A DNA stretch of 64,000 nt from an uncultured Actinomycetota bacterium (lineage in GTDB: Bacteria; Actinomycetota; Actinomycetes; Mycobacteriales; Pseudonocardiaceae), in assembly GCA_963822695.1 (NCBI GenBank), contig CAWGJH010000010.1:10094-74093 (forward strand), read 5' to 3'. The translations under genes and the position numbers were made by a program. Of this stretch, positions 25,521 through 63,004 are shown one piece after another (within the stretch, counting starts at the first letter, position 1; every line of letters starts with the position of its first letter). Below the pieces are notes generated by a model. It saw only the letters and a list, made by a program, of their open reading frames with translations, was not told the DNA's origin and made no database searches.

Positions 25521-26131
25521 CGGCTCCCACCCGCACCGCGACCTCGACGCGTGGCCGGACCACCGCGCCCACCCGCCGCCGGGCCACCGGGGCGCCGCGA
25601 GGCCGTTCCCCGGCCGTCGCCCGCGCCTACGCTCGGCGTGCCCAGCGTACCGGGGCCCGCCACCGTGTCCCCGATACCGCGGACGCCGGCCGGACGCCCT
25701 TCGTGCTGCTGGTGATGGTGCTGCTGGGGGTGACGTTGGTATCCACGCTGTGGTTGTCCACGGCCGCCACCGCTGACTCCTACCGCTTGCAGCGCGCCCG
25801 CGAGGATGCCAGGAACCTGGCCGAGCGTTCAGAGAACCTGAGCCGAGAGGTGGCTACTCTGGAGACCGCACCTGAGCTGGCTCGCCGGGCTCGCGAGCTG
25901 GGCATGGTGCCGGCCGGGAACCCGGCCCGGCTGATCGTCCGCCCGGACGGCACCGTCATCCTGATCGGCCAGCCCCGGCGGGCCACCGCACCCGCCCCGC
26001 CGCCGGCGGTAGTACCTGCCCCACCGGCAGCAACACCCGTCCCACCGCCGCCGGCATTACCTGCACCTGCACCCGCGGCAGTACCTGACCAGCCAGCTCC
26101 GCCACGGGCGCCAGTATCGGGCCGTGCCTGA
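25517..26131 (+). CDS. ftsL: FtsL-like cell-division protein
   Basis: Conserved dcw position. One TM segment ([19 protein letters not shown]) followed by coiled coil. GTGA overlap with rsmH. Confidence 0.7.
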
Positions 26132-28001: not shown

Positions 28002-28090
28002 CGCTGGGTCCGCTCCCGATCACGGAGGGCAGCGCCGGTAGCCTTCCTCCCCGCTGGGCCTTCAGCCCCACCCGCACCCGACCCCAGATC

Positions 28091-29683
28091 GTGACTGCTC
28101 CTGTGACTCCCTCGTTGGTCGAGACGCCGCTGCGCCCGTCGCACACCGCGCCGACCCCGGTGACCGCACTCGCCGCACTTGCTGGCGCGACCGTCTCGCG
28201 ACCCCTGGATTCGGGCTCTCTGGAGTGGGCGTCCGATCAGACGCTGGTCACGGGCATCACGCTGCGTGCCCAACAGGCCCTTCCCGGCGACCTGTTTGCG
28301 GCGCTGCCCAGCCTGATACCCGGCCGGCCGCATGGTGCCGACTTCGCCGGCATCGCGTTGAACGCTGGCGCTGTCGCGGTGCTCACGGACCCTGCGGGTG
28401 CACACCGCCCGGCGCTGGCCGCCGCGACCGCCTACCGACCGGAGATCCCGGTGCTGGTCCACCCCGACCCCCGGTCGGTACTGGGCACCCTGTCCGCCCG
28501 CACCTTCGGTGACCCCTCCACCCGGCTGGCGGTGCTCGGGATCACCGGCACCGCCGGCAAGACCACCACGGCATACCTTCTCGAGGCGGGGTTGCGCGCG
28601 GCGGGCGCGCACACCGGCCTGGTCGGCACCGTGCAGGCGCGGATCCGCGAGGCGCTGCTGCCCAGCACGTTCACCACCCCGGAGGCCCCGGACCTGCAGG
28701 CGCTGCTGGCGCTGATGGCCGAACACGGCGTCACCCACGTGCCTATCGAAGTCTCCAGCCATGCGCTGGTGCTGGGCCGGGTGACCGGTACCACCTTCGC
28801 GGTCGGCGCGTTCACCAACCTGTCCCAGGATCATCTGGACTTCCACGCCGACTTCGAGGACTACTTCGCCGCCAAAGCGATGCTGTTCGACGGGCGGGCT
28901 AGCGCCGAGGTGGTGTGCATCGACGACGTCTGGGGGCAGAGGCTGGTCACAGGTGAGACCACGACGGTTTCGTTGAACGGCGACGCCACGTGGCACGCTA
29001 CGGACATCACCGCCCAGCCCTCCGGCAGCCAGGCCTTCCGTGTCCTGGGTCCAGGCGGGTTTGACCAGCGCTTGGGGGTGCGGTTGCCCGGCGCGTTCAA
29101 TGTGACCAACGCGCTGCTTGCGTTGGCCGTCGGCCACACCGCGGGGGCTGACCCGATGCTGCTAGCCCGCGGCATTGCCACCGCCCAGGTGCCCGGTCGG
29201 ATGCAGCGGGTGGACTGCGGCCAGGGGTTCCTCGCTCTGGTCGACTACGCGCACAAGCCTGCTGCGGTGGCCGCGCTGCTCGACGCGGTGCGAGCCCAAG
29301 TCCCCGGGCGGCTGCTGGTGGTCCTGGGCTGCGGGGGAGACCGGGACACGGCCAAGCGCCCGCTGATGGGTGCCGAAGCGGCTCGCCGGGCCGATCTACT
29401 GGTGGTCACCGACGACAACCCGCGTACCGAGGACCCGACGGCGATCCGGGCGTCCATCCTCGCCGGAGTGCGAGGGGTCGCTGGCGCGTCGGTCGTGGAG
29501 ATCGGCGATCGGGCGGAGGCGATCGCCTACGCCCTCACGCGGGCCCGCCCGGGGGATGCCGTGGTCGTCGCGGGCAAGGGCCACGAGACCATGCAAGAGG
29601 TGCACGGCATCAAGCACCCGTTCGTGGACGCGGACGTGCTCGCCAACCTGCTCGCCGACCTGCTCGAGGGGAGCCGCGGGTGA
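28091..29683 (+). CDS. murE: UDP-MurNAc-L-Ala-D-Glu:meso-DAP ligase
   Basis: Has [17 protein letters not shown] and the DAP-specificity motif DDNPRTEDP. Confidence 0.92.
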
Positions 29684-30750
29684 GCACCATCCTGGTCGCC
29701 TCCGGAGTCGCCCTGCTCGCCTCCATTCTGTTCACGCCCTACCTCATCCGGCTGTTCACCCGGCAGGGCTTTGGTCAGGAGATCCGGCAGGAAGGACCCC
29801 AGACTCACCACAGCAAGCGGGGCACGCCCACCATGGGGGGAGTGGCCATTCTGCTGGCGATGTGGAGTGGTTACCTGGTTGCGCATCTCACCGTCACCCG
29901 GCATGACATCACCGCGTCGGCTCTGCTCGTGCTGCTGCTCACCACGGTGCTGGGTGTGGTCGGCTTCCTGGACGACCTGATCAAGGTTCGGCGGCAGCGC
30001 AACCTGGGCCTGAACAAGACCGCCAAACTGGTCGGGCAGCTGGTCGCCGCGGTGTTGTTCGGCATCCTGACGATGGGTTTCCGAGACGGCGATGGCATCT
30101 CCCCGGCATCGACTCACCTGTCGTTCGTGCGGGATGTCGCCGTGGTGTCCTTCGGCGTCGTTGGATTCGTGGTCTTCAGCTACCTGCTGGTGTCTGCCTG
30201 GTCGAACGCGGTGAACCTGGCTGATGGCTTGGACGGGCTGGCGGCGGGGGCGGCGGCGATGGTGCTGGTGACCTATGTGATCGTCTCGTTCTGGCAGTAC
30301 ACCCAGGATTGCACCATCCAGGCCGTGCCCGGCTGCTACACCGTGCGCGACCCGCTCGACGTGGCCGTGGTGGCCGCCGCCGCGGTCGGTGGGTGCATCG
30401 GGTTTCTGTGGTGGAACGCCCCCCCAGCGAAGATTTTCATGGGCGACACCGGGTCGTTGGCCATCGGCGGGCTGCTGGCCGGCCTGTCCGTGGTCACTCG
30501 AACCGAATTGCTCCTCGTCGTGATCGGTGGGCTGTTCGTCGTCGAGGCGCTGTCGGTGGTCATCCAGGTTGCGGTGTTTCGGACTACTCAGCGCCGGCCG
30601 TTCCGGATGGCACCATTTCATCACCACTTCGAGCTCGCCGGATGGCCCGAGACCACTGTCATCATCCGGTTCTGGCTCCTCGCGGCCATCTGCTGTGCGC
30701 TGGGCGCCGGTGTGTTCTACAGCGAGTGGTTGACGGCAGCCGGGGGGTGA
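29680..30750 (+). CDS. mraY: phospho-MurNAc-pentapeptide translocase
   Basis: GTGA overlap with murE. Polytopic protein with [22 protein letters not shown] and MGDTGSLA. Confidence 0.95.
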
Positions 30751-30754
30751 CGGG

Positions 30755-32236
30755 GTGCGTGCACCCATCAGCAATGTTAGTGACCTTTCTGGGGCCCGGG
30801 TGCTCGTGGCCGGGGCGCGGGTCACGGGAATCTCGGCTGCCCGGGTGCTAGTCGAGCTGGGCGCCGAGGTCACCGTCACCGACTCCGCACCCGCCCAGTT
30901 GGCGGCGCTGGCCGGTACCCCGGTGACGAGCGCAGTGCGGCTGGCGCTCGGGCTGGCCGCCCCGCCGCCGGGCACCGACCTGGTGGTGACCAGCCCTGGT
31001 TTCCGGCCGGACGCTCCGCTGTTGGTGGCCGCGCAACGCACCGGCGTGCCGGTGATCGGGGACGTGACGCTGGCCCGCTGGATCGATTGTGCTGTTTCGC
31101 GGCTCGGTGCTGGTTCGGGGCTCGATCGCGCCTCTCGATCCGGGGCCGACCAGACGGCAGCTGAGTGGCTGGTGGTCACCGGCACCAACGGTAAGACCAC
31201 CACGGTGGGGATGCTCGAATCGATCTTGCGCGCCGCCGGGGTGGATGCGGTGGCCTGCGGCAACATCGGGCTCCCACTGCTGGACGCGGTGCGCGCCGGC
31301 CACCGCGTGCTCGCCGTGGAGCTGTCATCGTTCCAGTTGCACTGGTCGCGCGAGCTGACCCCACGGGCCGCCGTGGTGCTCAACGTCTCCGCCGATCACC
31401 TGGACTGGCACGGCTGCCTGGCCGGGTATGCCGCAGCCAAGGGCAGCGTGTACGCCGAGGGCACCACGGCGGTGGTCAACGCCGACGATGAGTGGTCGAC
31501 GCGGCTGGCCGCTGGGCGTAGCGGGGTCGAGTTCACCATCAGTGAGCCAGCAGTTGGCCAATTGGGTGTGGTGGGCGAGGCGCTCGTTGACCGGGCCTTC
31601 GGCGATCCTGCCACTCGGGGTGGCAGCCCTGCCCGTCGGGGAGACAGCACAGTGCTCGCCAGCGTCGCCGACGTCCGGCCGGCCGGCCCACACAACCTTG
31701 CCAACGCGTTAGCCGCCGCGGCGCTGGCCCGCTGCATCGGGGTGGCGGCGCCGGCCATCGCCCAGGGATTGCGGGCCTTCACCCCTGGTGGGCACCGTGG
31801 TGTGCCAGTCGGCGAGCACGCTGGGGTGTGCTACGTCGACGATTCCAAGGCCACCAACCCGCATGCGGCGCGGGCCTCGTTGCTGGCCCGGCACCGGGTG
31901 GTGTGGGTGGCCGGAGGCCTGCTCAAGGGCGTTGACGTAGACGAGCTCGTCATCGACACCCGGGATCGGCTCCTCGGCGCTGTGCTGCTCGGCGCCGACC
32001 GCGCGGCGATCGCCGCCGCGCTGGCGCGACACGCCCCCAACCTCCCGGTGCGGGTGGTGGATTCGAGAGACGATGGCGCCATGATGGAGGTGGTGGCAGC
32101 AGCCGCCGAGCTAGCCAGTCCAGGCAGTGTCGTGCTCCTTGCCCCAGCGGCGGCGTCGATGGATATGTTCACCGACTACGCACATCGGGGCCGGGCGTTC
32201 GCCGCCGCTGTCGCCGCGCTGGGTATCCCCCGGTGA
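30755..32236 (+). CDS. murD: UDP-MurNAc-L-Ala:D-Glu ligase
   Basis: Has VVTGTNGKTTT and DSKATNPHAA. Conserved position after mraY. Confidence 0.9.
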   Translation: MRAPISNVSDLSGARVLVAGARVTGISAARVLVELGAEVTVTDSAPAQLAALAGTPVTSAVRLALGLAAPPPGTDLVVTSPGFRPDAPLLVAAQRTGVPVIGDVTLARWIDCAVSRLGAGSGLDRASRSGADQTAAEWLVVTGTNGKTTTVGMLESILRAAGVDAVACGNIGLPLLDAVRAGHRVLAVELSSFQLHWSRELTPRAAVVLNVSADHLDWHGCLAGYAAAKGSVYAEGTTAVVNADDEWSTRLAAGRSGVEFTISEPAVGQLGVVGEALVDRAFGDPATRGGSPARRGDSTVLASVADVRPAGPHNLANALAAAALARCIGVAAPAIAQGLRAFTPGGHRGVPVGEHAGVCYVDDSKATNPHAARASLLARHRVVWVAGGLLKGVDVDELVIDTRDRLLGAVLLGADRAAIAAALARHAPNLPVRVVDSRDDGAMMEVVAAAAELASPGSVVLLAPAAASMDMFTDYAHRGRAFAAAVAALGIPR

Positions 32237-33621
32237 GTAGCTCCACCCGGCCGCCGGGTACGGCACCGGGTCGGCCGGCGGCCAGTCGGGTGGCGGCCAG
32301 TCGGGTGGCGCATGGGCGGGTGGCGGCCAGTCGGGTCGTAGCTGCCCGCGAGCGGCTCACCGCCTGGTTGGCCCGGCCGCTCACCTCGCTGCACCTGGTG
32401 CTCGCCGTTTTCGGCCTGTTGACCCTGTTCGGTCTGGTGATGGTGCTCTCCGCGTCCACTGTGGAGTCCTACACCAGGGCAGGCTCATCCTATGCGGTGT
32501 TTGTCCAACAACTGGCGTACTGCGGGCTCGGGCTGGTGTTGTTCTGGCTGGGGTTGCGGATGCCGGTGCGGATGCTACGTGGCACCAGTGGACTGTTCTT
32601 GCTGGGGTGTGTGGTGCTGCTGGCCATGGTGCTCAGCCCGTTGGGCGCCGAGATCAACGGCGCGCAGAAATGGCTGCGGCTGGGCCCGCTGTCCCTGCAA
32701 CCCTCCGAGCCCACGAAGCTCGCCCTGGCCCTGTGGGGCGCGCACGTGTTGATCACCAAACGCGCGTTGTTGCGCCAGTGGCGGCACCTGCTGGTCCCGC
32801 TGGTTCCCATGGCCGTCGTCGTCTTCGCACTGGTGATGCTGCAGCCCGATCTGGGTACCACGATCACGCTGGCCATCGTGCTGCTCGCGCTGCTCTGGTT
32901 CGGCGGTGCGCCTGGCGAGCTGTTCGGCGCCATCGCGGTCGCCGCCGTCGCCGGGGCGGTTGTGATGGCCGGCATCGCCGGCTACCGATCAGCGAGAATT
33001 GAGTCCTTCCTGCACCCGGGTGCCGACCCCCAGGGCGCCGCTTACCAGGCCCGCCAGGCGATGTTTTCGCTGGCCGACGGCGGCTGGTGGGGGGTAGGCC
33101 TGGGGCAGGGCAGCGCCAAATGGCACTACCTGCCCAACGCGCATAACGACTTCATCTTCGCGATTATCGGGGAGGAATTGGGCTTTCTGGGCTGCCTGGT
33201 GGTGCTGCTGCTGTTCGGCACGCTGGCCTACGTGGGGATTCGGATCGCCGCGCGCAACACTGATCCGTGGATCAAGCTGGTAGCCGCCACCGTGACAACG
33301 TGGCTGGTCGGTCAGGCCACGATCAACATCGGGTACGTGGTCGGCTTGTTGCCGATTACCGGGATCCCGCTGCCGCTGATCTCTTCGGGGGGCACCTCCA
33401 TTGCCCTGACGATGCTGGCCTTCGGGTTGCTGGCCAACTTCGCCCGGCATGAACCGCAGGCGGTGTCCGCGCTGCGTTACGAGTTCAGCCGTTCTGGACG
33501 TCAGGGTGCGATCTCCCGGTTGCTGCGGTTGCGCCCTCCGGTGCCCTACACTCCCGCGTCCCGGTCACGCACCGCGCCGGGGCCGATCCCGTCCGGTCGT
33601 GGTAGCCGAGGTGGGCTATGA
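32233..33621 (+). CDS. ftsW: peptidoglycan glycosyltransferase FtsW (SEDS)
   Basis: Polytopic SEDS protein with GAQKWLRLG..LQPSEPTKLAL and NDFIFAIIGEELG. GTGA overlap with murD. Confidence 0.9.
   Translation: MSSSTRPPGTAPGRPAASRVAASRVAHGRVAASRVVAARERLTAWLARPLTSLHLVLAVFGLLTLFGLVMVLSASTVESYTRAGSSYAVFVQQLAYCGLGLVLFWLGLRMPVRMLRGTSGLFLLGCVVLLAMVLSPLGAEINGAQKWLRLGPLSLQPSEPTKLALALWGAHVLITKRALLRQWRHLLVPLVPMAVVVFALVMLQPDLGTTITLAIVLLALLWFGGAPGELFGAIAVAAVAGAVVMAGIAGYRSARIESFLHPGADPQGAAYQARQAMFSLADGGWWGVGLGQGSAKWHYLPNAHNDFIFAIIGEELGFLGCLVVLLLFGTLAYVGIRIAARNTDPWIKLVAATVTTWLVGQATINIGYVVGLLPITGIPLPLISSGGTSIALTMLAFGLLANFARHEPQAVSALRYEFSRSGRQGAISRLLRLRPPVPYTPASRSRTAPGPIPSGRGSRGGL
32281..32340 (+). repeat. 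15-bp in-frame tandem repeat x4 in ftsW 5' end
   Basis: Units are gccagtcgggtggcg x2, catgggcgggtggcg and gccagtcgggtcgta, encoding ASRVA ASRVA HGRVA ASRVV. Confidence 0.9.
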
Positions 33622-34424
33622 CTGCGGACTCTGTCGCCCGGGTGGTACCCCGCGCTCGACCGGCGCCGCAGCGCGACGCCGCATTCCGCGCGCCGCAGCG
33701 CCCGGCTGTCCCGCCCACTGCGGTGCAGCCGTCCGGGTCGGCCCGAACCTGGTGGCCCTGGCCGGCCGCCGGGATGGCGATGCTGACCCTGGCTGGTTCG
33801 CTGGCGTGGGTGCTGCTGGGTAGTTCGCTGTTCGACGCCCGCTCCGTGCAGGTGGTGGGCACCGGAGAGCTTTCCGCTGAGGTGGTGCGGGCGGTGGCGG
33901 ACGTGCGACTGGGCACGCCGATGATGTGGCTGGACACCACGGCGATCGAGACCCGGGTAGCTGCGGTGCCGCAGGTGGCGAGTGTCCAGGTGCGGTGCAG
34001 CGTCGATGGCACGGTACGGATCGAAGTCACCGAACGCACCCCGATCGCGGTCGTGCGCCCTGGCAGTGGCGTGCACCTGGTGGACGCCACGGGAACCGAC
34101 TACGCGACGATGCCCGTCGGGCCGCCTGGCCTGCCGGAGTTACGGGTGGCACGAGTCGGGCCCCGGGACAGCGCGACGGCGGCTGCGCTGACGGTGCTGA
34201 CCAGGTTGCCCGAGTGGCTGCGCGTCCAGGTTCGCTCGATAGCCGCGAAGTCTCCGGCCGACGTCGTGCTGGGACTGGACACCGGGCGGAGAGGCACTGC
34301 GCGGGAGGTGCGGTGGGGTGGTGTGGAGGAGAGTGACCGCAAGGCGGCGGTGCTCGGCCCGCTACTGACCCAACCCGGCAAGATCTACGACGTCTCCAGC
34401 CCCACCTTGCCGACCATCGCCTGA
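33618..34424 (+). CDS. ftsQ: cell-division protein FtsQ
   Basis: ATGA overlap with ftsW. One TM segment, then a POTRA-like region: VQVVGTGELSAEVVRAVADVRLGTPMMWLDTTAIETRVAAVPQVASVQV. Confidence 0.85.
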   Translation: MTADSVARVVPRARPAPQRDAAFRAPQRPAVPPTAVQPSGSARTWWPWPAAGMAMLTLAGSLAWVLLGSSLFDARSVQVVGTGELSAEVVRAVADVRLGTPMMWLDTTAIETRVAAVPQVASVQVRCSVDGTVRIEVTERTPIAVVRPGSGVHLVDATGTDYATMPVGPPGLPELRVARVGPRDSATAAALTVLTRLPEWLRVQVRSIAAKSPADVVLGLDTGRRGTAREVRWGGVEESDRKAAVLGPLLTQPGKIYDVSSPTLPTIA

Positions 34425-35556
34425 GTCGCGAGTAGTTGTCGGGATCGTATGGTGTCGTGGGTGAGGACGATGCTGTGGCGGGGGACGGTGGCCAAGGCGT
34501 CGCGGGTGCGTGCCCAGATCTGGTGGCGGTGGTCGGGGGGGTGATCCGGGTCAGGCGAAGGAAGTCGAGGTAGCGGTCGTCGTGGTCGGGGTCGAAGAAG
34601 TCGCTGGTGGTGACGGTGCGCGAGGAGGCGTCGAGGCGGGGTTCGCCGTCGGGGTCAAGACGAGGGAAGATCAGTGCGGTGGCGGTGGCGGAGCGGGTGA
34701 GTTGCAGGCCGAGCCAGTCGGTGAGTTGGTGCGGGAATAGTTGGGTTTTGAGCTCGCGGCCGTGAGAGTCGCGCAGTGGGCTGGTGTGGCCGTTGAGGAT
34801 GGCGGTGGTGACGGCGGGGTCGACGGTGGGGTGCAGGTGCTGCCCGGCGGCAAGCTGAGTGCGCACGCCGTCGAGGAGGCCATGGGCGTGCAGCAGCCCG
34901 AGTCCGAGCGCCGCGGCGGCGGGCCAGGGCAGCAGGGCCCGGGTGGCGGGGTGCAGGAAGACCCGGTCGTTGGCCAGAAGCTGGTGGCCCTGCGTGGTGA
35001 GCAGTAGCGCGGTGGTGGTCTTGCCGGCGCCTTTGGGTCCAAGCGCGAGGGTGGCGTCATTGTCGCGGACGGCGGCGCTGGCGTGCATGATGGCCCACCC
35101 ATCGGCTTCGAGCTGGGCTCGGATGAGTTCGCGGGTGATGCGGGCGGCGGCCAGGCATAGGCCGAGGGACATGGTGGCGGTGAGGGTGAGCCGGGTGCGG
35201 CAGGTGTCGGTCTCGTAGGCGACCTGCTCAGCGGGATCGACCGCACAGACGGTGTTGTCGGTGTTGTCAGCGACGTGGAGGGGGTTGCGAGCAAACTCAA
35301 TGATCCGGTGGGGCCGGGTGTTGAGGCTGTCCTGGGCGGCGGCGAAGCGGTCGGGATCGACGTGACAGTGGAGCACGGGGCCACTGGTGTCGGCCGCTGA
35401 GGTGGTGGGTCGCACGGTCCACCAGCAGCCGAAGTACTGGGTGATCCAGTCGGTGACGGCGGGGGCGTCGCTGATGACGAGAACGGTGGCGGGTCCGGCA
35501 CTGACCAGCACGACGTGCGGCGGGATTGAGGTAGGCACGGCTCGCTTCCTTGTCAA
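34385..35556 (-). CDS. HPr-kinase-like P-loop protein (HprK-related kinase family), C-terminal frame ambiguous
   Basis: Has IMHASAAVRDNDATLALGPKGAGKTTTALLLTTQGHQLLANDRVFL. As written, the ORF runs on to 34027, antisense through ftsQ, with a Pro/Ser/Arg-rich tail. A 1-nt change in the G7 run at 34535-34541 gives ...ITPPDHRHQIWARTRDALATVPRHSIVLTHD... ending at TAG 34385. Confidence 0.55.
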
Positions 35557-35558
35557 TT

Positions 35559-51591: not shown

Positions 51592-51918
51592 TCAGCCCGG
51601 CTCACCGCGGCGCTTGCGATGGAGCACCCACGCCAGGTCCACCAACGCGATCACCGCCAGCACCGCGAGCACCACGCCGAACGCCACCAGTTTCGCCTTG
51701 ATCATAACCACTGCGGCCACGGTGCAGAGCACCAGGCCAAAACCGGCCAGCACCGCCCGCAAGGTCAGTGCGCTGCGGGCCGGCGCAGCCCCGCCGAATC
51801 CCGCAGTCGGGTCGTGGTAGCCGGGCAGCCCCCGTTCGTAGTCGCCCCTGGTACGGCGGCGCGGGTGTGGGTTCGGCTGCTGAGACGTGTGTCCTCCGGA
51901 TGGATCCCGGTTCGTCAC
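51592..51918 (-). CDS. small two-TM membrane protein
   Basis: GTG at 51918 follows AGGGAGGAGCAG. Two hydrophobic helices and a basic tail, HRKRRGEPG. Confidence 0.55.
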   Translation of the reverse strand: MTNRDPSGGHTSQQPNPHPRRRTRGDYERGLPGYHDPTAGFGGAAPARSALTLRAVLAGFGLVLCTVAAVVMIKAKLVAFGVVLAVLAVIALVDLAWVLHRKRRGEPG

Positions 51919-52076
51919 CTGCTCCTCCCTGGGGCACGTAAGGGGCGTACCCGCCTCCCAGGCGTACCCACGGTGAACGGGGCAGAAAACGTCGGGCCAG
52001 CACCCCTGGCTGCGCCCGGCAGCGCCTCGGCAAGCGGACGACAAGCACATGATCTGGGTGAGGGGGGTATGGGCGG

Positions 52077-52912
52077 CTATGTCGCGCCGAGCACACCGTG
52101 CGGGTCGAGAACGAACTCTTAGGTACGCCCTGGTCGAACTCCTGATAACCCCGCGGTGCATCGTCCAAGGTGATCACGGTGGCGTTGACGTTCTTGGCGA
52201 TCTGTACCCGATCATTAAGGATCGCCATCATCAGCTCGCGTTGATAACGCATGGCAGGGCATTGTCCGGTGGCGAACGAGTGCGCCTTGGCCCAGCCGAC
52301 GCCGAACCGCAGGGACAGCGCTCCCCGCTGCGCATGGGGGTCACTGGCTCCGGGATCCTCCGTGACGTACAGCCCGGGAATGCCGATGGCGCCGCCGGCC
52401 CGAGTAACGTCCATCGCGGCGTTGAGCACCGTCGCCGGTGCCTCGCGCCCGTCTCTGCCACCACGCGCCTCGAATCCGACCGCATCGACCCGACCGTAGC
52501 GTCCACCTCGGCAACGCCGAGGATCTGCTCGATCTGGTCGGGCAACGGGCGTCTTGCGCTCCTTGCAGTTACGGCATCGGCCACAGGCCACGTGAAAAGG
52601 AACCGATACCAGATCACCCACGGCGACGAACTCGACGTCGCGGCCCTTCTCGACCACCTCTCCGGTGATTTCATGACCCAGCACCAAGCCTAGCGGTGCG
52701 GTCGTCCGGCCCCGCACCATGTGCTGGTCACTGCCACAGATGTTGGTGGCGAGGATCTTCACGATCACCCCGTGCGGGCACTGCCGTCACGCATTCGCGG
52801 GGGGGGGGGGGGGCACGTCAGGACCAGGCTTGAGCACGAACTCGGGGTAGTCGATGGACTCCACCGAGACCTTGCCAGGTCCCTGATACACGACTCCACG
52901 GTTACTGGCCAC
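52077..52912 (-). pseudogene. fdhA: glutathione-independent formaldehyde dehydrogenase (FdhA-like Zn-ADH), decayed
   Basis: The N-terminus is VASNRGVVYQGPGKVSVESIDYP. There is an in-frame TGA at 52787-52789 before CPHGVIVKILATNICGSDQHMVRGRTT. The central ~170 aa (Rossmann part) are missing. A 1-nt deletion near the end disrupts GVPK(K)FVLDPHGVLGAT*. Confidence 0.8.
52799..52813. repeat. G15 homopolymer (C15 on the coding strand, encodes PPPPP)
   Basis: Uninterrupted run of 15 G inside the fdhA remnant. Confidence 0.95.
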
Positions 52913-53484
52913 CTGCGTCAGCTCCCTCCCGGCCCACCGGCCACCATAGCTTGCCGCCCTAAAGTGGCAAACCCGCCGTGGTAAGGCTTCGTCCTGCGGG
53001 GTCGGCTTAGACGTCCGCACTGGTGTTCCCAGGCTGAGGTACACCCAGTGCGGAACACCCCGGGACAGCAGAGCAGGTGAGTCTCGCGGTCCGAAAAACA
53101 GCTGGACGGAGCTCACCGCAGGTGAACGAGACACGACCGCAGTCACTTCGATCACAACGCGTCATGGCGGCGGCGCGATTTTGCGCCCAGGCAAGGGCGT
53201 ACGCAACGCACACTCATCGGCATGAGCGGACGTTGCGGCGCATCGGAGATTCTCACAACTGACCAGATGTAAAAGTTCTGCGAGAGGCCGTGTTCGACTT
53301 CTGTCCGCCCAGGTCGCGATTCCAAAAACACCTCTCAAAATTATCACATCCTTCGAGGGAGTTCTGACTCGAATCCGCGAGTAGTGGTGCGACACGGGTC
53401 GTGAGAGGGGAATAGGTGCCCTGTGGCCTGGGATGATGATGCTGTCAAGGACATGATCACTCGGGTTGGAAGGACACCTATCTG

Positions 53485-53691
53485 GTGGGCAGGTTACGTG
53501 GTGGGGAGCGGGTTTGTGATCGGGGTTATTCGGTGGGTGAGTTGCTGGTGGGCTTGGCTGCGGCCCAGTTGACGGGAGAAGATCATCTCATCGGCCTGGA
53601 TCGGCATCGTGCGGAGGCGGTGGGTCAGGAGTTGATCGATCTGGATACCTTCTCAGGTCCGCCTACCTCAAGCCGGATTCCCAACCATTGA
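53485..53691 (+). mobile_element. IS1380-family transposase N-terminal remnant
   Basis: DRGYSVGELLVGLAAAQLTGEDHLIGLDRHRAEAVGQEL resembles the IS1380 N-terminal region. Only about 60 aa remain. Confidence 0.45.
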
Positions 53692-53812
53692 CATCGCTGT
53701 CACCGTGGGAATCAACAATCTCCATAGTAGGATCATCATGGATGAGCATCGCGGGGGCGATCGCAAGCAGTATTCCAACAATGAGGGTCAACAAGGCTAC
53801 GACAAGGGGCAT
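53663..53812 (-). CDS. possible 49-aa hydrophobic peptide
   Basis: GAGAGGAGATGTT precedes the ATG. The peptide is MPLVVALLTLIVGILLAIAPAMLIHDDPTMEIVDSHGDSDVNGWESGLR. It has AT-richer codons than the host genes and lies in IS debris. Confidence 0.3.
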   Translation of the reverse strand: MPLVVALLTLIVGILLAIAPAMLIHDDPTMEIVDSHGDSDVNGWESGLR

Positions 53813-54232
53813 AACATCTCCTCTCGACTCTCCGTAACTCCTGTGGACATAGATCCAAATTCAGGAATCATCGTTCGAGCCCTGTGATGGCGAAAAGTTA
53901 TCCGAACAGGTAACCGGTGTGGCCTGGTGGTACACGGTGCCGCTCATTCGCGGCCTAGACTCCACCCGTCAGACGTGTGCTGTCTTCATGCGCAGTGATG
54001 ACCTTCGCTACGTCTTTCAACGGCACCCCCGTCGCGACGCTGCGGGTGGCGGCTGCCTTCACCGAACGGGTCGTCGCGATCTGATCAAACCACGGGAACG
54101 GATACCAGCCTGGCACCGCTTCGCACGGGCTGTGTGAGGCCTGGTGCGGTTTCAGATGTCGCCGAGGTGCCCCGCTCTCCACCCCCGGTATCACCGGATC
54201 CAGACCGCACACCCCCACCCGACGATGATCCG

Positions 54233-54665
54233 GCTGCCAGTGTCAGCAAGCAGCTGGAGCGCATCAAGTGGTTCCTGTGGCACGGCAACCCTACCGTGCC
54301 CTGCAGATCATCGAGGACCTGGCGGTCGATCTCGACATCGACGGGCCCAGCGTCTCCCAGACCAAGCTACTCAGGGCGGTGCGCGAGTTCGGCGTCTACC
54401 TCGCCGCCAACACCGGGCGCATCCCCAACTACGGGGAGCGTCACCGCACCAGGGAGACCATCTCCACCTCGTTCGTCGAGTCCACGGTCAACCAAGTGAT
54501 GAGCAAGCCTGGTCAAAAAGCAGCAGATGCGCTGGAACCCCCTCGGTGCCCATCTGCTCCTGCAAATCCGCACCCGGATCCTCAACAACACCCTCACCGA
54601 CGACTACCGGCGCTGGTACCCCCCATTTCACCCACACCACCGATCAACAGAAGCTGGCCGCGTAG
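54233..54665 (+). mobile_element. ISKra4-family transposase C-terminal remnant (three frames)
   Basis: QLERIKWFLWHGN / YRALQIIEDLAVDLD...LLRAVREFGVYLAANTGRIPNYGERHRTRETISTSFVESTVNQVMSK / MRWNPLGAHLLLQIRTRILNNTLTDDYRRWYP. Confidence 0.65.
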
Positions 54666-54728
54666 CTCCCCCATTAATCCCGCTCTCCGTTATGATGCAG
54701 GCACCGACGCCGTCGAGGGGAGACTGTC

Positions 54729-56030
54729 GTGCTGGCACTGCGGCGCGTTGTGCACGAGATTCACTCCATCGAGATCGGTTCCGCCACCCGGTACGCGCAG
54801 CACCAGCTCGTGGTGGGCCGGGACCAGTCCCAGGCGCTGTTCGCTGATCCAGCCCTGGAGTCGGCACGGGTGCACGTCGCGGTACCGGGAGACCGGACTC
54901 GGATCGTTGCGCCGCTCGACGTCGTGGAGCCGCGCACGAAGGGATCGGGAGGGGCACTCGGCGGGGGAGTGTTTCCTGGCTGGATGGCGCCGGTGAACCG
55001 CAAGCGCGGGGGCGACACCCACGTGCTGCGCGGGGCCGCGGTGCTCGCCGCCGGATACCTGCCCCGTAACCAGGAGGGCCTGATCGACATGTCCGGCCCG
55101 GCCGCACAGCGCTCTCCGGTCGCCCGGACGAACAACGTCGTGATCGAATTCGACCGCGCTGACGGTGCCTCCTGGCAGGACGCCGAGGTTGCGGTGCGCC
55201 GTGGGCTGCTGCGCCTGGCCGTGCACCTCGCCGACGCCGCTGTCGATGCCCCGCCCGACGCGATCGAAGAACTGGCACCCCCGCACCGTCCGGGAACGCC
55301 CACCGGCGGTCTGCCCCGCGTCGGTGTGATCACCAACTTGCAGACCCAGGGAGCGTTCAAGGATGTCTTCGTCTACGGGCGCAGCATGGCCGGCAGCCTG
55401 CCGACCTTGTTCGATCCGACCGAGATCGAGGACGGGGCCGTGGTCAGCGGTCAGTACGGGCACCCGGCGCTGCGCAATCCCACCTACCTGCACCAGAACC
55501 ATCCGGTGATCGCCGAACTCCGCGCCCGCGATGGCCAGGACTTGTGCTTCGCGGGAGTGGTGCTGTGCCCGGAGCCGGTCGAACTGGCCGACAAAGAACT
55601 GGTCTCCGCGCATGCCGCCTGGCTGTGCCGCGCCGCTGGCTTCGACGCCGCCATCGTGACCAAGGAAGGCGCAGGCAACGCCGACAACGACCTGATGTTG
55701 AAGGTTGACGCGCTGGAGGCTGACGGCCTGACCGCGGTTGCGCTGTACGCCGAGTTGTCCGGTGCTGACGGCACCGGTCCACCGCTGGTGGCCGGTCCCC
55801 GAAGGGGCGCGGTGGTCAGTACCGGTAACTACGATCAGCGGGTGAAGTTGCCGGCGGTCGAGCGGGCTTTGGGGGGCGCTCGATTGGGCATCGCTGATGC
55901 GGACGCGACCGCGGCGGTCGAGGTGCCGACCGCCGCGATCCTGAGTGCCCTGAGCCCGCTGGGCGCCGGGTGGCTCACCTGCCGTTCGGAGCAGCAGTGG
56001 GCCGGCCAGCTGTGGGGAGGCGCGGCCTGA
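54729..56030 (+). CDS. glycine/sarcosine/betaine reductase component B non-seleno subunit (GrdE/GrdG/GrdI family)
   Basis: 433 aa with VVEPRTKG...GGVFPGW...THVLRGAAVL...QEGLIDMSG...NLQTQGAFKDVFVYG...NPTYLHQNHPVIAEL...IVTKEGAGNADNDLML. Stop/start overlap (ATGA) with the next gene. Confidence 0.75.
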   Translation: MLALRRVVHEIHSIEIGSATRYAQHQLVVGRDQSQALFADPALESARVHVAVPGDRTRIVAPLDVVEPRTKGSGGALGGGVFPGWMAPVNRKRGGDTHVLRGAAVLAAGYLPRNQEGLIDMSGPAAQRSPVARTNNVVIEFDRADGASWQDAEVAVRRGLLRLAVHLADAAVDAPPDAIEELAPPHRPGTPTGGLPRVGVITNLQTQGAFKDVFVYGRSMAGSLPTLFDPTEIEDGAVVSGQYGHPALRNPTYLHQNHPVIAELRARDGQDLCFAGVVLCPEPVELADKELVSAHAAWLCRAAGFDAAIVTKEGAGNADNDLMLKVDALEADGLTAVALYAELSGADGTGPPLVAGPRRGAVVSTGNYDQRVKLPAVERALGGARLGIADADATAAVEVPTAAILSALSPLGAGWLTCRSEQQWAGQLWGGAA

Positions 56031-57352
56031 TGCGCATCGTGCACTACGTCAATCAGTTCTATGCGGGGCTCGGTGGCGAGGAGGCGGCGGGTATCGGCCC
56101 CCGGGTACTCGACGGGATGGTGGGCCCTGGGCGGTTGCTGGCCCAGTTGCTCAATGCCGAGCACCAGGACGAATACCAGATTGTGGCCACGATCGTGTGC
56201 GGCGACGACTACGCCGCCTCTCACACCGCCGTCGTCGAGGAGTTGCTCGGGATGGCGCGTGCGGCCGGCGCCGAACTGCTGGTTGCTGGGCCCGCCTTCG
56301 GCAGCGGACGCTACGGGCTGGCGTGCGCCCGGCTGGTCGCCGCCGCCGACGCCGCTGGGTTGCCGGCGCTGGCCTCACTGCACCCCGACAACCCCGGCAT
56401 CTCTGACGCGGGGGCCGCACCAGTCGTGGCCGCGGGTACCACCAGCCGACAGATGCGGCCGACATTGCAGACGGTCGCCACCGCAATCGCGAAGCTGGCC
56501 ACCGGCGCGAAGCTGACGGTGGCGGACGGCCGAGTCGCCCGGGTCGCCCGGATCGGCCAACTGGTCGAGCAGCGCGCCGCGGCGCGGGCAGTCGGGCTCG
56601 TGCTGCGCCGCCTCGCCGGCGACCGGGAGAGCACCGAAGTCCCCATCGGTGGGTTCGACGTGGTCGCTCCATCGGCACCGGTCAACAAGGCGGCCAGCGC
56701 GACCATCGCGCTGGCCACCGAGGGTGCCGTGGTGCCAGCCGGCAACCCAGATCGGCTCGAGGCAGCCCGCGCCACCCGCTGGTTGCGCTACCAGATCGAG
56801 GGGGTCGACTCGCTGGCTGCCGGTGAGTGGGAGTCCGTGGACGGCGGCTTCGCCACCACCGCCGCCAATGCCGACCCGAACCGGATCCTGCCCCTGGACA
56901 CCGCCCGCACCCTGGAGCGCGAGGGCGCGATCGGCCGGCTGCACAACGAATTTCTGGTCACGGTGGGCAACGGCACGCAGGTGGACACCGCGCGGCGCTT
57001 CGGCGTCGAGTGGGCCGCGGAGCTGCGCAAGGCGGGCGTGCAGGCGGCGATCCTGACCGCCACTTGAGGCACCGGGACGCGTTGCGGGTCAGCGCTTGCC
57101 AAGGAGCTGGAGCGGGCTGGCATCCCCACGGCTCTGATCACCAACCTCGTGACGATCGCTGAGCAGGTCGGCGCGCCGCGGATCGTGCCGGGTCGCGGCA
57201 TCCCCTACCCGTCGGGCGATCCGAACCTGCCGCCACCTGCCGAGCGGGCCTGGCGGCGGCGACTGGTGCAACGGGCACTGGACGCGGTCGCGACCGCGGT
57301 CGAACGCCCCATGATCTTCGAAGTCGATGCTGCGGAGGAGACCCATGCCTGA
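56030..57352 (+). CDS. selenoprotein B of glycine/sarcosine/betaine reductase (GrdB/F/H family), UGA=Sec at 57065-57067
   Basis: Starts MRIVHYVNQFYAGLGGEE, then reaches ...AAILTAT-TGA-GTGTRCGSALAKELERAGIPTALITNLVTIAEQVGAPRIVPGRGIPYPSGDP..., in frame through the TGA to 57352. The U-x-x-C-x-x-C-like context is typical of GrdB. The ORF track splits the gene at this codon. Confidence 0.8.
57068..57100 (+). promoter_or_regulatory. candidate bacterial SECIS hairpin for the GrdB-like UGA
   Basis: The GCGUU(57079-83)/AGCGC(57091-95) stem starts 11 nt after the UGA and has a 7-nt loop, GCGGGUC. An outer GGCA/UGCC helix is at 57068-71/57097-100. Confidence 0.4.
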
Positions 57353-58772
57353 AGCCGCCGTGGTCCGCGCCGCCAGCCTCGTACTCGCCCATACCCCGGG
57401 CCTCGCCCGGCACGGCTCCAAGCCGATGCGTACCCTCGCTGGCGAAGACAAGCTGACGGCCAGCTTCCTGGCGAACCTGCGCAACTTCGACGATGCCGTC
57501 AACTACCCGCCGCACCAGGCGTTTCTGGGCGCCTGCCACCCTCGTGAGCTGCCGTCCCGTCCGTGGGTCGGGGCTGACTGGCCCGGCGCGGACCGCTTCG
57601 CGCCGTTCGGCGAACTGATGCCGGAGGAGGAGTTCCTCGGGTTGATGGCCGCAGTCGACGAGTTCGACCTGCTGGTGCTCACCCCGGAGGTCGCCGAGCG
57701 GGCCGCCAAGCGGTTGGCTGAGCATCCGCTGGCGGCGCGCCTGGACCTGGGGCGGATCTCCGCGGCGACCGGGGATGTCGCCGCTGCCGTGGCGAGCGGC
57801 GCCCTGCCGGTGCACCTGGCGCCCGACTGTCTCGCTGGCGCGCTGCGCGTGGCGCACGCCGAGGACGAGTCATTGGCCGCGCACGTGCTGATGGAGAACC
57901 TGGCCTGCAAGGCCACCGGCGCGCTGGCGCTGCTGCACCTGCTGCACGACCACGGTCTCGACCGAGCGGCCATCGGCTACACGATCTCCTGCTCGGAGGA
58001 GGCCGTCGGCGACCGCTACCAGCGCGGCGGGGGCAACATGGGCAAGACGATCGCGTCGGTAGCCGGCTTGAGTGAGTCCTCCGGTGCGGACGTCAAAAAT
58101 TTCTGCGCGGCGCCGATTCCCGCACTGGTGATCGCCGCCAGCCTCGTGGCGGCAGGAGTGGTCGAGCAGGTCGTGGTTGTCGCCGGAGGTTCACTACCCA
58201 AACTGGGAATGAAATTCGAGGGACACCTGCGCCACGGTCTGCCCGTGCTGGAAGATGTGATCGGCGGCGCCGCAATTCTGGTGACCGCCGACGACGGCAT
58301 CTCACCTCGAATCCGGCTCGACGCCGTCGGGCGCCACCGGGTGTCCTCGGGCGGCGGCGGTGCGCAGATCCTGAACGACCTGGCCGTGCGGCCGCTAGAG
58401 GCGATCGGCGCGCGCATGCTGGACATCGACGACTACGCCACCGAGCTGCACAATCCGGAGATCACCGAGCCGCAGGGTTCGGGAGACGTCGCGGCGCGCA
58501 ACTACCGTACGATCGCGGCGCTGGCCGCCCGCCGCAAGGAGATCGCCCGCGACGGCATTGAACCGTTTGTCGCGCAGCGTGGCATGCCGGGCTACGCGCC
58601 CACCCAGGGTCACATTGCGTCAGCGGTGTGTTACCTACCCCATGCCCTGAGCCGGCTGACGTCGGGACCGGCCGACCGGGTGTTGCTGCTCGCCAAGGGC
58701 AGCCTGTTCCTCGGGCGGATGAGCCAACAGTCCGATGGCATGAGCGTGCTGCTGGAACGCAATGGAGGCTGA
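57345..58772 (+). CDS. grdC: glycine reductase complex component C, beta subunit (GrdC)
   Basis: Has AASLVLAHTPGL...NYPPHQAFLG...FGELMPEEEFLGLM...ISCSEEAVGDRYQRGGGNMGKTIA...GMPGYAPTQGHI...KGSLFLGRM. An alternative ATG is at 57327. Confidence 0.75.
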   Translation: MPEAAVVRAASLVLAHTPGLARHGSKPMRTLAGEDKLTASFLANLRNFDDAVNYPPHQAFLGACHPRELPSRPWVGADWPGADRFAPFGELMPEEEFLGLMAAVDEFDLLVLTPEVAERAAKRLAEHPLAARLDLGRISAATGDVAAAVASGALPVHLAPDCLAGALRVAHAEDESLAAHVLMENLACKATGALALLHLLHDHGLDRAAIGYTISCSEEAVGDRYQRGGGNMGKTIASVAGLSESSGADVKNFCAAPIPALVIAASLVAAGVVEQVVVVAGGSLPKLGMKFEGHLRHGLPVLEDVIGGAAILVTADDGISPRIRLDAVGRHRVSSGGGGAQILNDLAVRPLEAIGARMLDIDDYATELHNPEITEPQGSGDVAARNYRTIAALAARRKEIARDGIEPFVAQRGMPGYAPTQGHIASAVCYLPHALSRLTSGPADRVLLLAKGSLFLGRMSQQSDGMSVLLERNGG

Positions 58773-58775
58773 CAC

Positions 58776-59114
58776 ATGGCTGTGCTGGATGCGACGAGAG
58801 AGAACTTCGACGAGCTCGTCGGGTCAGGTGTGGTGCTCGTGGATGTGTGGGCGGAAAGCTGCCGTCCGTGCGTGGTGCTGGGGCCACACATGGAGAGCAT
58901 CGCGAGTGGGAACCCAGATCTGACCGTGGTCAAGCTGGATGCCAGCAAAGCGCGGCGGCTGTGCATGTCACTGCAGGTGCGTGGACTTCCCACGATCCTG
59001 CTGCTCCACGACGGCCAGGAGGTGGCCCGGATTTCCGAGCCCAGCCTCACAGTAGAGCAGGTGGATACGTGGCTGACCACGGCGTTAGCCGAGTTACCCA
59101 CAAAGGAGGCATGA
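58776..59114 (+). CDS. trxA: thioredoxin with CRPC active site
   Basis: 112 aa with VLVDVWAESCRPCVVLGPHM...RGLPTILL. Confidence 0.85.
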   Translation: MAVLDATRENFDELVGSGVVLVDVWAESCRPCVVLGPHMESIASGNPDLTVVKLDASKARRLCMSLQVRGLPTILLLHDGQEVARISEPSLTVEQVDTWLTTALAELPTKEA

Positions 59115-59576
59115 ATGTTCGACGGCAAGCAGGTCATCGCGATCGGGGAACGCGACGGGATTTCGGGGACGGCGATTGCGACCTGCGTCCAGGCGGCGGG
59201 TGCCCCGGTGGCCTATGTCGCCACCGAATGCTTCGTTTGAACCGCCGCCGGCGCCATGGACCTGTCCACCCAGGAGACGATCAAGCGCCTGGTCAACGAG
59301 CACGGCGCAGATGCGCTGCTCGTCCTGCTCGGCGCCCCGGACGCGGAAAGCGCCGGGATCGCCGCCGAGACGGTGGTGCTCGGTGATCCGAGTTGGGCAG
59401 GACCGCTGGCCGGGGTCCAGTTGGGCCTCCCCGTATACCACATCCTCGAAGACGAGCCCCGCGCCGCAATCCCCACCGAGGTGTGGGAAGAGCAGGTCGG
59501 GCTGATGATCGACGTGCTGGAGGTGGACGCCATCGCCGACGCCGTGCGTGAGTTTCGGGAGCAGGTTCCCTCGTGA
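59115..59576 (+). CDS. grdA: selenoprotein A (GrdA), UGA=Sec at 59238-59240
   Basis: [78 protein letters not shown]... The [13 protein letters not shown] motif is the GrdA hallmark. The reading frame is continuous with ORF 59256..59576. Confidence 0.85.
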
Positions 59577-59795
59577 GTGAGCGCGGGGCAAACCGTGGTC
59601 CTGGACGCGGATCAGCATCGCCGCTTCTGGACCTCGGCCGCCGGCACTGACCCCACCAGCTCAGCACTACCTCCCACGGTTTGCTCCGCTCTCGTCAACA
59701 GCGTGGGCGGGCTGGCCTGCACCACCCGCACGTGGTCCTCGGACCGACCAGTGGATCCCATGTCGTCGAGGAGCAGCACGAACCGGGATCACGTT

Positions 59796-61689: not shown

Positions 61690-62500
61690 ATGGGTTATAC
61701 ATCCATCACCGTGATCCTTAACCCGGCGGCAGGTTCGGGTACCCACCAGCCCCGTGTCCGTCGGGCCGCGCAGGACCGGCAGATCGATGTCCGTGAGATG
61801 CACGCGGGTGACGAAGCTGGTGCCCTGGCGCGGGAAGCAGCCGACGACGGTGCCCAGGTGCTGATCGCGGCGGGGAGAGACGGAACGCTCAGCGCCGTCG
61901 CGGGAGTGGCAGCCCAGCACGATATCCCCTTGGTCGTCGTTCCCTGCGGCACCCGCAACCACTTCGCCAAGGACTGCGGGGCCGCCACCATCAACCCGGT
62001 AGGCCAGCTCGCATCGACGTCGGCACGGTCAACGGCCGGGTGTTCCTCGACAACGTCTCGGTCGGCTTCTATGCCACCATGGTGCGCGATCCGCAGTACC
62101 GGCAGCGCCGGATCCGGGTCGCGGCGCGGTACGCACAGCGTGCCCTGCTCTGGGTGGGTGACGCGCATCGCTGCGCACCGCAGTACCTCACCGGGTCGTC
62201 ACCCCGGAACAAGTGCTGGCGGTTCTGTACCATCCGTCCCGGTGCGTTACGGCTGCTGCAACCCTGCGCGAATACACCAGCGCAACGGCAGTTCTTCCGG
62301 CGATGGTGACCTCACCGAGCCACTCGATTCGAGGAGCGTCGAGCAGACCCGCCGCCAACTTGCCAACTTCGAAGTCCGCGGTCTCAGTGAGGGGGGAGCA
62401 GATGGCGGCGTACCGGCCCGACCCGGATCCATGGTTGGAGGGCGTCGGTGGCGCTTGTTCGTCGGTGGACGGGGATCGGGACCGCGCTCCAGCTCGACGC
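61690..62500 (+). pseudogene. diacylglycerol/lipid kinase (DAGK_cat family), spread over three frames
   Basis: ITVILNPAAGSG...LIAAGRDGTLSAV...LVVVPCGTRNHFAKDCG (frame 1), then RIDVGTVNGRVFLDNVSVGFYATMVRDPQYR (frame 0), then the remainder in frame 2. The 425-aa ORF is mostly out-of-frame read-through. Confidence 0.65.
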
Positions 62501-62809
62501 CCCAGTACCGGCCGGGTCGGTGCGCGCCTGGGCCGTTCGGGCATGATCATAGGCGGCGCGCTGGGTGGGGTCGCGGAGCACGGCGTAGGCGTGGAGCACC
62601 TCAGCGAGGCTGGGCAAGGCGAGCTGGCCGGGCTGTTGGTCGGCGTGGTGCTGTCGGCGAGTGTCGGGGTGGAGCTGGCGCAGCCGCCGCCGGTAGGCGC
62701 TGGCCAGCTCGCCGAGCTCCGCGTCCGGTGAGACCCCCAGGACTGCATAGAGGTCTGCGGCTCGCTGGTGCGCGCCACGGGGGTCCGGCGGCGGGGAGGA
62801 GGGTGGCAT
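62384..62809 (-). CDS. J-domain (DnaJ-like) protein
   Basis: Has DLYAVLGVSPDAELGELASAYRRRLRQLHPD...AYAVLRDPTQRAAYD (HPD motif). Confidence 0.75.
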   Translation of the reverse strand: MPPSSPPPDPRGAHQRAADLYAVLGVSPDAELGELASAYRRRLRQLHPDTRRQHHADQQPGQLALPSLAEVLHAYAVLRDPTQRAAYDHARTAQARTDPAGTGASSWSAVPIPVHRRTSATDALQPWIRVGPVRRHLLPPH

Positions 62810-63004
62810 GGGGTGCTCTTGTGGTATTCGGTGCTGAGTCTCGCTGTCGGTTCATTGTCTCCTGCGACTCCGGTGAGCGCACCGGCGACCGGTATCGTCC
62901 CGTCGCGGTGGGGGCGGTGGCCGGCAGTCTGGTCCGTCAGGAGGTCGCTGGTTGGGTTGACCGTTGAGCGATGGGTTGATCCGCGCCGACCGCATCGTCG
63001 GTGT

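Follow-up and report, generated by a model that had tools for sequence, protein, structure and literature searches.

Gene content of the cassette

The 64-kb stretch of contig CAWGJH010000010.1 analyzed here (the whole of which we call the window) carries a five-gene cassette of the Grd family, a group of selenoenzymes that serve as textbook markers of strictly anaerobic amino-acid fermenters. All five genes lie on the forward strand within a conserved block, 54654..59585, whose limits are set by the extent of blastn similarity to its closest relatives. The first gene (54729..56030; PF09338, 321 bits) encodes a GrdE-like subunit of component B, of a non-processed type without the Asn-Cys site that forms a pyruvoyl group. 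It is followed by a selenoprotein-B-like subunit of the GrdB family (56030..57352; TIGR01918, 395.5 bits against a cut-off of 65.45), which is read through one UGA and carries the motif U-G-T-G-T-R-C. Next come GrdC, the beta subunit of component C (57345..58772; NF040746, 543.3 bits, cut-off 450), with no grdD behind it, and a thioredoxin with the active site WAESCRPC (58776..59114; PF00085, 62 bits). The last gene encodes GrdA, or selenoprotein A (59115..59576; NF040748, 203.6 bits, cut-off 130; PF04723, 199 bits), also read through one UGA, in which the CxxU motif is present as C-F-V-U. The cassette thus belongs to the broad Grd family, with a CxxU-bearing GrdA, a selenoprotein B member (TIGR01918 is the model for selenoprotein B of the glycine/betaine/sarcosine/D-proline reductase family) and a GrdC. 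The thioredoxin best matches the NCBIfam model for clostridial TrxA, scoring 74 bits against a cut-off of 140, and keeps its CxPC motif across related loci.

To place the cassette among its relatives, one genome per species was scanned across 185,579 species, of which at least 262 genomes contain a relative; detailed comparisons concern the best 80 of the 262 relatives' loci, with flanks of up to 10 kb. Three classical clusters, from Enterococcus gilvus (L081), Acetoanaerobium noterae and a Photobacterium, were taken as references. The gene order GrdE-like, B-like, GrdC, thioredoxin, GrdA is found again in essentially all of the best 80 loci that are long enough. Within the window, neighboring cassette genes overlap or abut at their start and stop codons (TGATG, ATGCCTGA, TGAATG), and the five genes are therefore translationally coupled. 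They form one conserved, tightly coupled unit. An initial reading made from the sequence alone (the sequence-only reading) had described five coupled genes here, and the open reading frame (ORF) map and direct translation confirm its coordinates and peptide contexts to the base. A scan for sigma-70 promoters and terminators over the operon gave nothing above background, and a search of the PDB by sequence found no solved homologue for either B subunit.

Selenocysteine at the two in-frame UGA codons

The in-frame UGA codons lie at 57065..57067 (+) in the selenoprotein-B-like gene and at 59238..59240 (+) in grdA. The peptide around the first reads ...ILTAT-U-GTGTRCGSALAKELERAGIP..., and its immediate context, TAT-U-GTGTRCG, matches the family pattern (S/A)T-U-GT. 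Across related loci the codon at the selenocysteine (Sec) position is TGA in 78/78 B-like genes and 63/63 grdA genes, never a cysteine codon. The surrounding residues, UGTGTRCG in the B-like protein and TECFV-U-T in GrdA, are invariant even though overall protein identity drops to 61%. Beyond the UGA the frames remain intact for 94 codons in the B-like gene and 111 in grdA. There the ratio of nonsynonymous to synonymous substitution rates (dN/dS) ranges from 0.04 to 0.39 (B-like 0.04-0.39; grdA 0.07-0.22), on par with the parts before the UGA and with grdC and trx, which indicates that the post-TGA frames are under purifying selection. The proposal of the sequence-only reading, that both UGAs lead in frame into conserved sequence, is borne out by this selection and by the invariance of TGA.

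All five cassette genes and 19 of the 22 backbone genes also use TGA as their ordinary stop, so the genetic code has not been reassigned and recoding must be local and context-dependent. Both Sec positions coincide with those of the experimentally established selenoproteins GrdA and GrdB (Kreimer & Andreesen 1995, as cited in PMC13188914). Database homologues of the B subunit fall into 2,389 clusters at E <= 1e-20, and each of the top 120 breaks off no later than the UGA, with a length of 341-350 residues or less, having been shortened by gene callers. It is almost certain that this lineage decodes both UGAs as selenocysteine, and from the lineage we strongly infer the same for the source genome.

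Recoding signals downstream of the UGA codons

A SECIS-like hairpin (SECIS, selenocysteine insertion sequence) occupies 57079..57095 (+), 11 nt past the UGA of the B-like gene. Its arms, 57079-57084 (GCGUUG) and 57090-57095 (CAGCGC), form 6 bp around the loop CGGGU. It is the only consensus structure recovered by RNAalifold, and its six pairs are all canonical in 74/74 distinct sequences, with one pair varying as U-A, U-G or C-G; the copy in the window is intact, with one U-G wobble. The codons that make up the hairpin, ACG CGU UGC GGG UCA ACG, are fixed in related GrdB-like genes, including CGU, GGG and UCA, which end in A, U or a less favored base where third positions are about 85% G+C. Over the hairpin, synonymous codon entropy drops to 0.029 bits, lower than in any other of the 396 windows scored; the mean for the gene is 0.983 +/- 0.232. 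A homologous hairpin, CGUUGC-GGN-GCAACG, is found at the same codons of classical GrdB/GrdH genes from Enterococcus, Acetoanaerobium and Photobacterium. The hairpin and its SECIS-like spacing had been noticed in the sequence-only reading, and its conservation and the classical counterpart now uphold that observation. When folded as single sequences, the post-UGA regions are no more stable than shuffled ones (z = +1.3 for the B-like hairpin), and the case for a SECIS element rests accordingly on comparative data.

In grdA, the synonymously constrained stretch past the UGA is 59253..59285 (+), corresponding to codons 47-57, where synonymous entropy is 0.238 against 0.788 +/- 0.242, the lowest of 126 windows. 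The only conserved pairing there is a short CCUG...CAGG core with GA/UC pairs, and we regard the stretch as a candidate SECIS with a weak stem and an unsettled structure. In each of the two genes the strongest synonymous constraint falls directly past the UGA. No riboswitch of Rfam matched the window at the gathering threshold.

Selenocysteine machinery linked to related cassettes

While searches for tRNAs, sel genes and grdD in the source genome cover the window alone, the related loci are informative about the Sec machinery. In 10/80 of them ARAGORN identified a tRNA-Sec (anticodon UCA) no more than 10 kb from the cassette, and selA, selB or selD lies within the same distance in 16/80. The identities of these genes exceed the NCBIfam equivalog cut-offs (score/cut-off: SelA 412/268; SelB 274 and 283/242; SelD 389/125). 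One locus (L053) is arranged as selC-selA-selB-cassette, and in another (L075) selD-selC-selA-selB lies upstream of the cassette on the opposite strand, in divergent orientation. In the closest relative (L001), selB begins 200 nt past grdA and is followed by a tRNA-Sec. The sel genes are the commonest cassette neighbors across otherwise unrelated contexts and the only ones that recur across synteny groups, no transporter or regulator being consistently linked within the 80 loci; the exception among neighbors is an ABC-transporter-like family found downstream in 10/80. The SelD of the divergent locus (L075 6891-7919, minus strand), which stands beside a Solirubrobacteraceae cassette, has Cys rather than Sec at its active-site position (HGAGCGCK); the selenoproteins that accompany the sel genes in that locus are the Grd proteins and not SelD.

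Departures from the classical Grd pattern

Classical GrdE contains an Asn-Cys site (SGN/CVSACDKN) whose cysteine becomes a pyruvoyl group. The GrdE-like protein of the cassette reads SGQYGHPALRN at this position, as against SGNCVSACDKN in GrdE of A. noterae and Photobacterium and SGSFMPCSSKW in GrdI, and the site holds Q-[Y/F] in every related locus that covers it. Processing cysteines are also missing from GrdI and FarE, neither of which is a proprotein (PMC10838667). An exhaustive search against 1.84 billion representative proteins sets the GrdE-like subunit apart in a small separate clade, in which representatives share 46-62% identity with it before values drop to 40% or less. Within the wider GrdE superfamily (proteins P0195-P0344), only ~8 of ~130 full-length representatives have SGNC, and most have Asn or another residue followed by Tyr or Phe at the pyruvoyl site; the characterized pyruvoyl enzymes are a minority occupying a small corner of the superfamily. 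Three of its proteins (P0197, P0232 and P0291) reach 774-798 aa, which may reflect a fusion of GrdE with GrdB or the merging of gene calls.

The selenoprotein B motif departs as well, being UxxGxxC (U-G-T-G-T-R-C), invariant in 78 loci, where the classical references have UxxCxxC (U-G-T-C-T-R-C). The CxxC of the classical motif shields Sec from oxidation, and it has been lost in FarB (PMC10838667). Among the downstream components, grdD directly follows grdC on its 3' side in 3/3 classical references, whereas tblastn with E. gilvus GrdD found no match in the window (E <= 0.01) or in 80/80 related loci with their flanks (E <= 1e-3). A trxB gene is linked in only one of the 80 related loci, with none in the window. 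GrdC of the cassette keeps the FCAAP cysteine and lacks a C-terminal tail of ~25-35 residues, together with two cysteines (GCVK and EACGD), that classical GrdC proteins have in common.

None of the substrate-specific models is passed. Scores are about half of the cut-off or less for GrdB (364.5 vs 602.2), GrdF (388.6 vs 800), GrdH (354.9 vs 775), GrdG (233.6 vs 780), FarE (NF053623, 122.6 vs 675 bits) and the D-proline reductase models for PrdA and PrdB (TIGR04480, 35.7 vs 700; TIGR04483, 77.2 vs 300). Of the operon type assigned in the sequence-only reading, the attribution to a Grd-family selenoprotein operon stands. The labels 'glycine/betaine reductase', 'GrdE/I' and 'GrdB/H' prove too specific, because the cassette has no pyruvoyl site, no UxxCxxC, no grdD and (bar one relative) no trxB, and because it passes no substrate-specific model.

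Host, distribution and origin

The window carries the dcw cell-division cluster together with SepF, DivIVA, LspA and RluD, and its other genes are housekeeping genes. FtsZ, DivIVA, a K+/H+ antiporter and Hsp20 fall into 90%-identity clusters with proteins from metagenome-assembled genomes (MAGs) of Pseudonocardiaceae/Pseudonocardiales. These backbone clusters and the dcw genes identify the host as an uncultured Pseudonocardiaceae-type actinomycete, in agreement with the actinobacterial assignment made earlier from the sequence. All of the best 80 loci come from MAGs of uncultured Actinomycetota, recovered from soil, peat, groundwater and the like. The names attached to them are Pseudonocardiaceae, Pseudonocardiales, Mycobacteriales, Sporichthyaceae, Egibacteraceae and Solirubrobacterales, with Pseudonocardiaceae and Solirubrobacterales making up most of them. 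Identity follows this taxonomy, at mostly 75-93% in Pseudonocardiaceae (one at 70%), 69-75% in Sporichthyaceae and Egibacteraceae and 61-64% in Solirubrobacterales. The cassette belongs to a distinct clade that has so far been seen only in uncultured soil Actinomycetota.

The sequence-only reading suggested that the cassette was acquired horizontally, with Stickland fermenters and other anaerobes as the best-known carriers of Grd systems; the data do not support acquisition from such a source. The G+C content of the cassette (0.68-0.72) and of its third codon positions (0.83-0.85) is the same as that of the backbone, identity to classical Grd proteins is 37-41%, and the relatives track actinobacterial taxonomy; a recent transfer from Clostridia thus finds no support, and the cassette has long been resident in Actinomycetota. 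The pattern observed is one of relocation inside the lineage. By blastn the cassette shares 95.5% identity with its closest relative (L001) over 54654-59585 and 90.6-95.0% with the next four (L005, L003, L002 and L004) over nearly the same span. In all five, similarity begins no more than 75 nt before the first start codon and ends 9 nt past the last stop, while the flanks beyond the cassette have no match to them. Grouping the flanks of the 80 loci yields several synteny groups and many singletons. Evidently the cassette moves about within its lineage. No repeats or target-site duplications bracket it, the only inverted repeat being one just past grdA, and no megablast match to PLSDB points to a plasmid origin. 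That repeat (59579-59598 / 59674-59693; 20 nt, 90% complementary, arms 75 nt apart) begins 3 nt past the grdA stop, coincides with the end of similarity to the closest relative and could be a terminator or a junction scar.

Variation in copy number and content was also observed among the relatives. Some loci (L018, L020, L027 and L049; also L014) have the GrdE-like/B-like pair alone, grdC, trx and grdA being absent from up to ~9.7 kb of downstream sequence. The MAG JBOHHF has such a pair-only locus beside selA/selB (L018) in addition to a full cassette (L058), and Centralia_MAG_342 has two full cassettes (L007 and L009). These cases suggest that a genome can hold several component-B paralogues, a situation shared with classical Grd organisms.

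In the literature we found no description of a Grd system for Pseudonocardiaceae, Solirubrobacterales or other Actinomycetota. The Grd-bearing 'Actinobacteria' entry of a 2006 survey is Symbiobacterium, and a 2026 selenoproteome review makes no mention of Actinobacteria or Actinomycetota. The NCBI pipeline already labels truncated proteins of Pseudonocardiales MAGs as 'family reductase selenoprotein B'. What is new here is the combination of a non-pyruvoyl alpha subunit, UxxGxxC, the lack of linked grdD and trxB, and linkage to sel genes, in uncultured members of groups that are commonly taken to be aerobic.

Local setting in the window

Right against the upstream end of the cassette lies what is left of an ISKra4-family transposase (54268..54665, +; NF033572, 73.5 bits), a frameshifted C-terminal piece outside the enzyme itself, whose stitched frames match model positions 317-422 of 422. 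The surroundings further include a broken ADH-like gene, a region of lower G+C, a MerR/Hsp20 pair, a truncated DAGK-like gene and an RHH-domain protein with an adjoining PIN-like ORF. The decayed genes lie in 51602-54700 and 61690-62964. The ADH-like ORF has a Pfam match limited to its first ~75 residues, and the DAGK-like ORF has one in its first ~110 residues only, followed by low-complexity sequence. G+C content falls to 61% at 52-54 kb of the window.

At a distance from the cassette, the dcw cluster (26124-42628) looks reduced and interrupted. It has a single Mur ligase gene between the PBP gene and mraY, and ftsQ (33618-34424) lies directly behind ftsW, without murG and murC between them. 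From ftsQ to ftsZ (41348) there is a gap of ~7 kb with a GC-skew spike at 34-36 kb, and in this gap a 538-aa protein with a CdiA_C toxin domain is encoded on the minus strand (36582-38195).

Proposed chemistry and alternative explanations

The missing site for a carbonyl cofactor, the unlinked grdD and the frequent linkage to sel genes point to a chemistry that differs from the classical one at both ends of the reaction. We consider it probable that the cassette encodes a live, Sec-dependent reductase of the Grd family whose component B is free of pyruvoyl and, like those of the betaine and fluoroacetate reductases, acts on a substrate that has a good leaving group. The steps proposed below are modeled on the mechanism of Andreesen (summarized in PMC13188914 and PMC9908766), our own observations being confined to recoding and gene content. 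The GrdE-like/GrdB-like pair would bind a substrate of the type X-CH2-COO-, and the selenol of the B subunit would displace X and pick up the carboxymethyl group. This group would be handed to the Sec of GrdA (CxxU) and then received by GrdC as an acyl-thioester, leaving GrdA in a Se-S form to be re-reduced by the CRPC thioredoxin of the cassette. Since Gln-Tyr stands in place of the pyruvoyl-forming Asn-Cys, the substrate is probably not bound as a Schiff base, which argues against glycine or sarcosine and for a compound whose leaving group is intrinsically good. Candidates, by analogy with GrdI/GrdH and FarE/FarB, are a betaine-type onium compound and a halo- or otherwise activated acetate. 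Because grdD is never linked to the cassette, the final step may yield acetate or acetyl-CoA instead of acetyl phosphate; alternatively, another part of the genome may supply GrdD.

Several points weigh against this reading. The window contains no tRNA-Sec and no sel gene (it lacks tRNAs of any kind, and the best tblastn E-value for SelA, SelB or SelD is 0.16), and Sec decoding in the source genome is argued from its relatives. The cassette sits among decayed genes, namely the ISKra4 remnant and the broken ADH-like and DAGK-like ORFs. The SECIS of grdA could not be defined structurally, and Rfam gave no SECIS match for the window at the gathering threshold or for the operon at E <= 10. We infer the substrate and product with no consistently linked transporter or regulator as a hint, and grdD might be present elsewhere in these genomes.

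The absence of tRNA-Sec and sel genes from the window, and the transposase remnant and broken genes at the flanks, would also suit a cassette that has become a dead passenger in the source genome, its Sec machinery lost, its UGAs acting as stops and its selenoproteins truncated. The dN/dS against the closest relative, 0.22-0.38, is somewhat above that against distant ones and leans the same way; it is nonetheless well under 1, and raised ratios are expected in any case for very close pairs. All five frames are intact, including the 94 and 111 codons past the UGAs, as is the SECIS-like hairpin but for its U-G wobble. In as many as 64/80 relatives, too, no sel genes lie closer than 10 kb, and little can be concluded from a window that lacks them; we judge decay very unlikely. 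Reading of the UGAs by other means, such as a suppressor tRNA or the insertion of Cys or Trp, is scarcely credible: it has no specific support, TGA is the normal stop in operon and backbone, tRNA-Sec (UCA) and SelA, SelB and SelD are physically linked to the cassette in relatives, and the positions are those of the GrdA and GrdB selenoproteins for which the work cited in PMC13188914 established Sec by experiment.

An active enzyme could still be an ordinary glycine or sarcosine reductase serving Stickland-type energy conservation, with GrdD and TrxB encoded elsewhere and acetyl phosphate as its product. GrdA and GrdC do exceed their equivalog cut-offs, the best B-subunit scores are those of the sarcosine models GrdG/GrdF, and classical organisms use one A/C set for several B components (PMC10838667). 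Yet the Asn-Cys site needed for primary and secondary amines is Gln-Tyr/Phe in every member, and the GrdB, GrdF, GrdH and GrdG scores reach only about half of their cut-offs or less. The grdD that follows grdC in each of the three references is missing from the window and from every one of the 80 loci, and GrdC is without the classical C-terminal tail and its two cysteines. A classical reductase of this kind is unlikely, and we favor the pyruvoyl-free reductase with a good-leaving-group substrate.

A more far-reaching version of the pyruvoyl-free reading can be offered only tentatively, and we hold it to be possible rather than probable. The cassette might represent a hitherto uncharacterized Grd type independent of both GrdD and pyruvoyl, by which widespread, nominally aerobic soil Actinomycetota (Pseudonocardiaceae, Solirubrobacterales and relatives) carry out thioredoxin-driven reductive C-X cleavage, converting X-CH2-COO- to acetate or acetyl-CoA and not to acetyl phosphate. 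Together with the often adjoining selD-selC-selA-selB it might form a relocatable 'selenium island', in which Grd, and not formate dehydrogenase, would be the main reason that the Sec trait is kept. If the variant is active, selenium availability matters for the physiology of abundant soil actinomycetes, and an unrecognized reductive sink may exist under oxygen limitation, possibly for osmolytes (betaine) or activated acetates. Gene callers would then be systematically truncating two proteins in these genomes. We see in the cassette a lead for enzymology and soil selenium biology, with no new principle involved.

Comparison with known systems

One of the closest known systems is the glycine reductase of Acetoanaerobium (Clostridium) sticklandii and Eubacterium acidaminophilum, composed of GrdE-GrdB, GrdA, GrdC-GrdD and TrxA-TrxB; in A. 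noterae the genes are ordered trxB-trx-grdE-grdA-grdB-grdC-grdD. The cassette resembles this system in passing the equivalog cut-offs for GrdA and GrdC, in the Sec position of its GrdB-family subunit, in the place of the SECIS-like hairpin behind the GrdB UGA and in having a thioredoxin within the cluster. It differs in lacking the Asn-Cys site, in having UxxGxxC, in the absence of grdD from its loci and the near absence of trxB (1/80), and in a shorter GrdC without two conserved cysteines. Its proteins are about 37-41% identical to the classical Grd proteins, and its hosts come from orders of actinobacteria that are mainly known to be aerobic, in contrast to the Stickland fermenters that host the classical enzyme.

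Another parallel is provided by the betaine reductase GrdI/GrdH, as encoded on E. gilvus pCR1A (L081). Its alpha-type subunit, like that of the cassette, has no processing cysteine and is presumably not a proprotein (PMC10838667), and no Schiff-base chemistry is therefore expected of either. The site itself differs (SGQYGHPAL against SGSFMPCSS), GrdH keeps UxxCxxC, and the GrdH model failed on the cassette protein. The E. gilvus cluster, ordered trxB-trx-grdA-grdC-grdD-grdI-grdH-BCCT, includes grdD, trxB and the gene for a BCCT betaine transporter; the cassette of the window is linked to none of the three.

The fluoroacetate reductase FarE/FarB of Synergistota (Cloacibacillus porcorum MFA1) shows the same two departures, FarE being without processing cysteines and FarB without CxxC (PMC10838667). 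The cassette differs from it in retaining one of the two cysteines (GxxC), in its low score with the FarE model and in phylum and habitat. FarE/FarB shows that the Grd family can act on non-amine X-CH2-COO- substrates.

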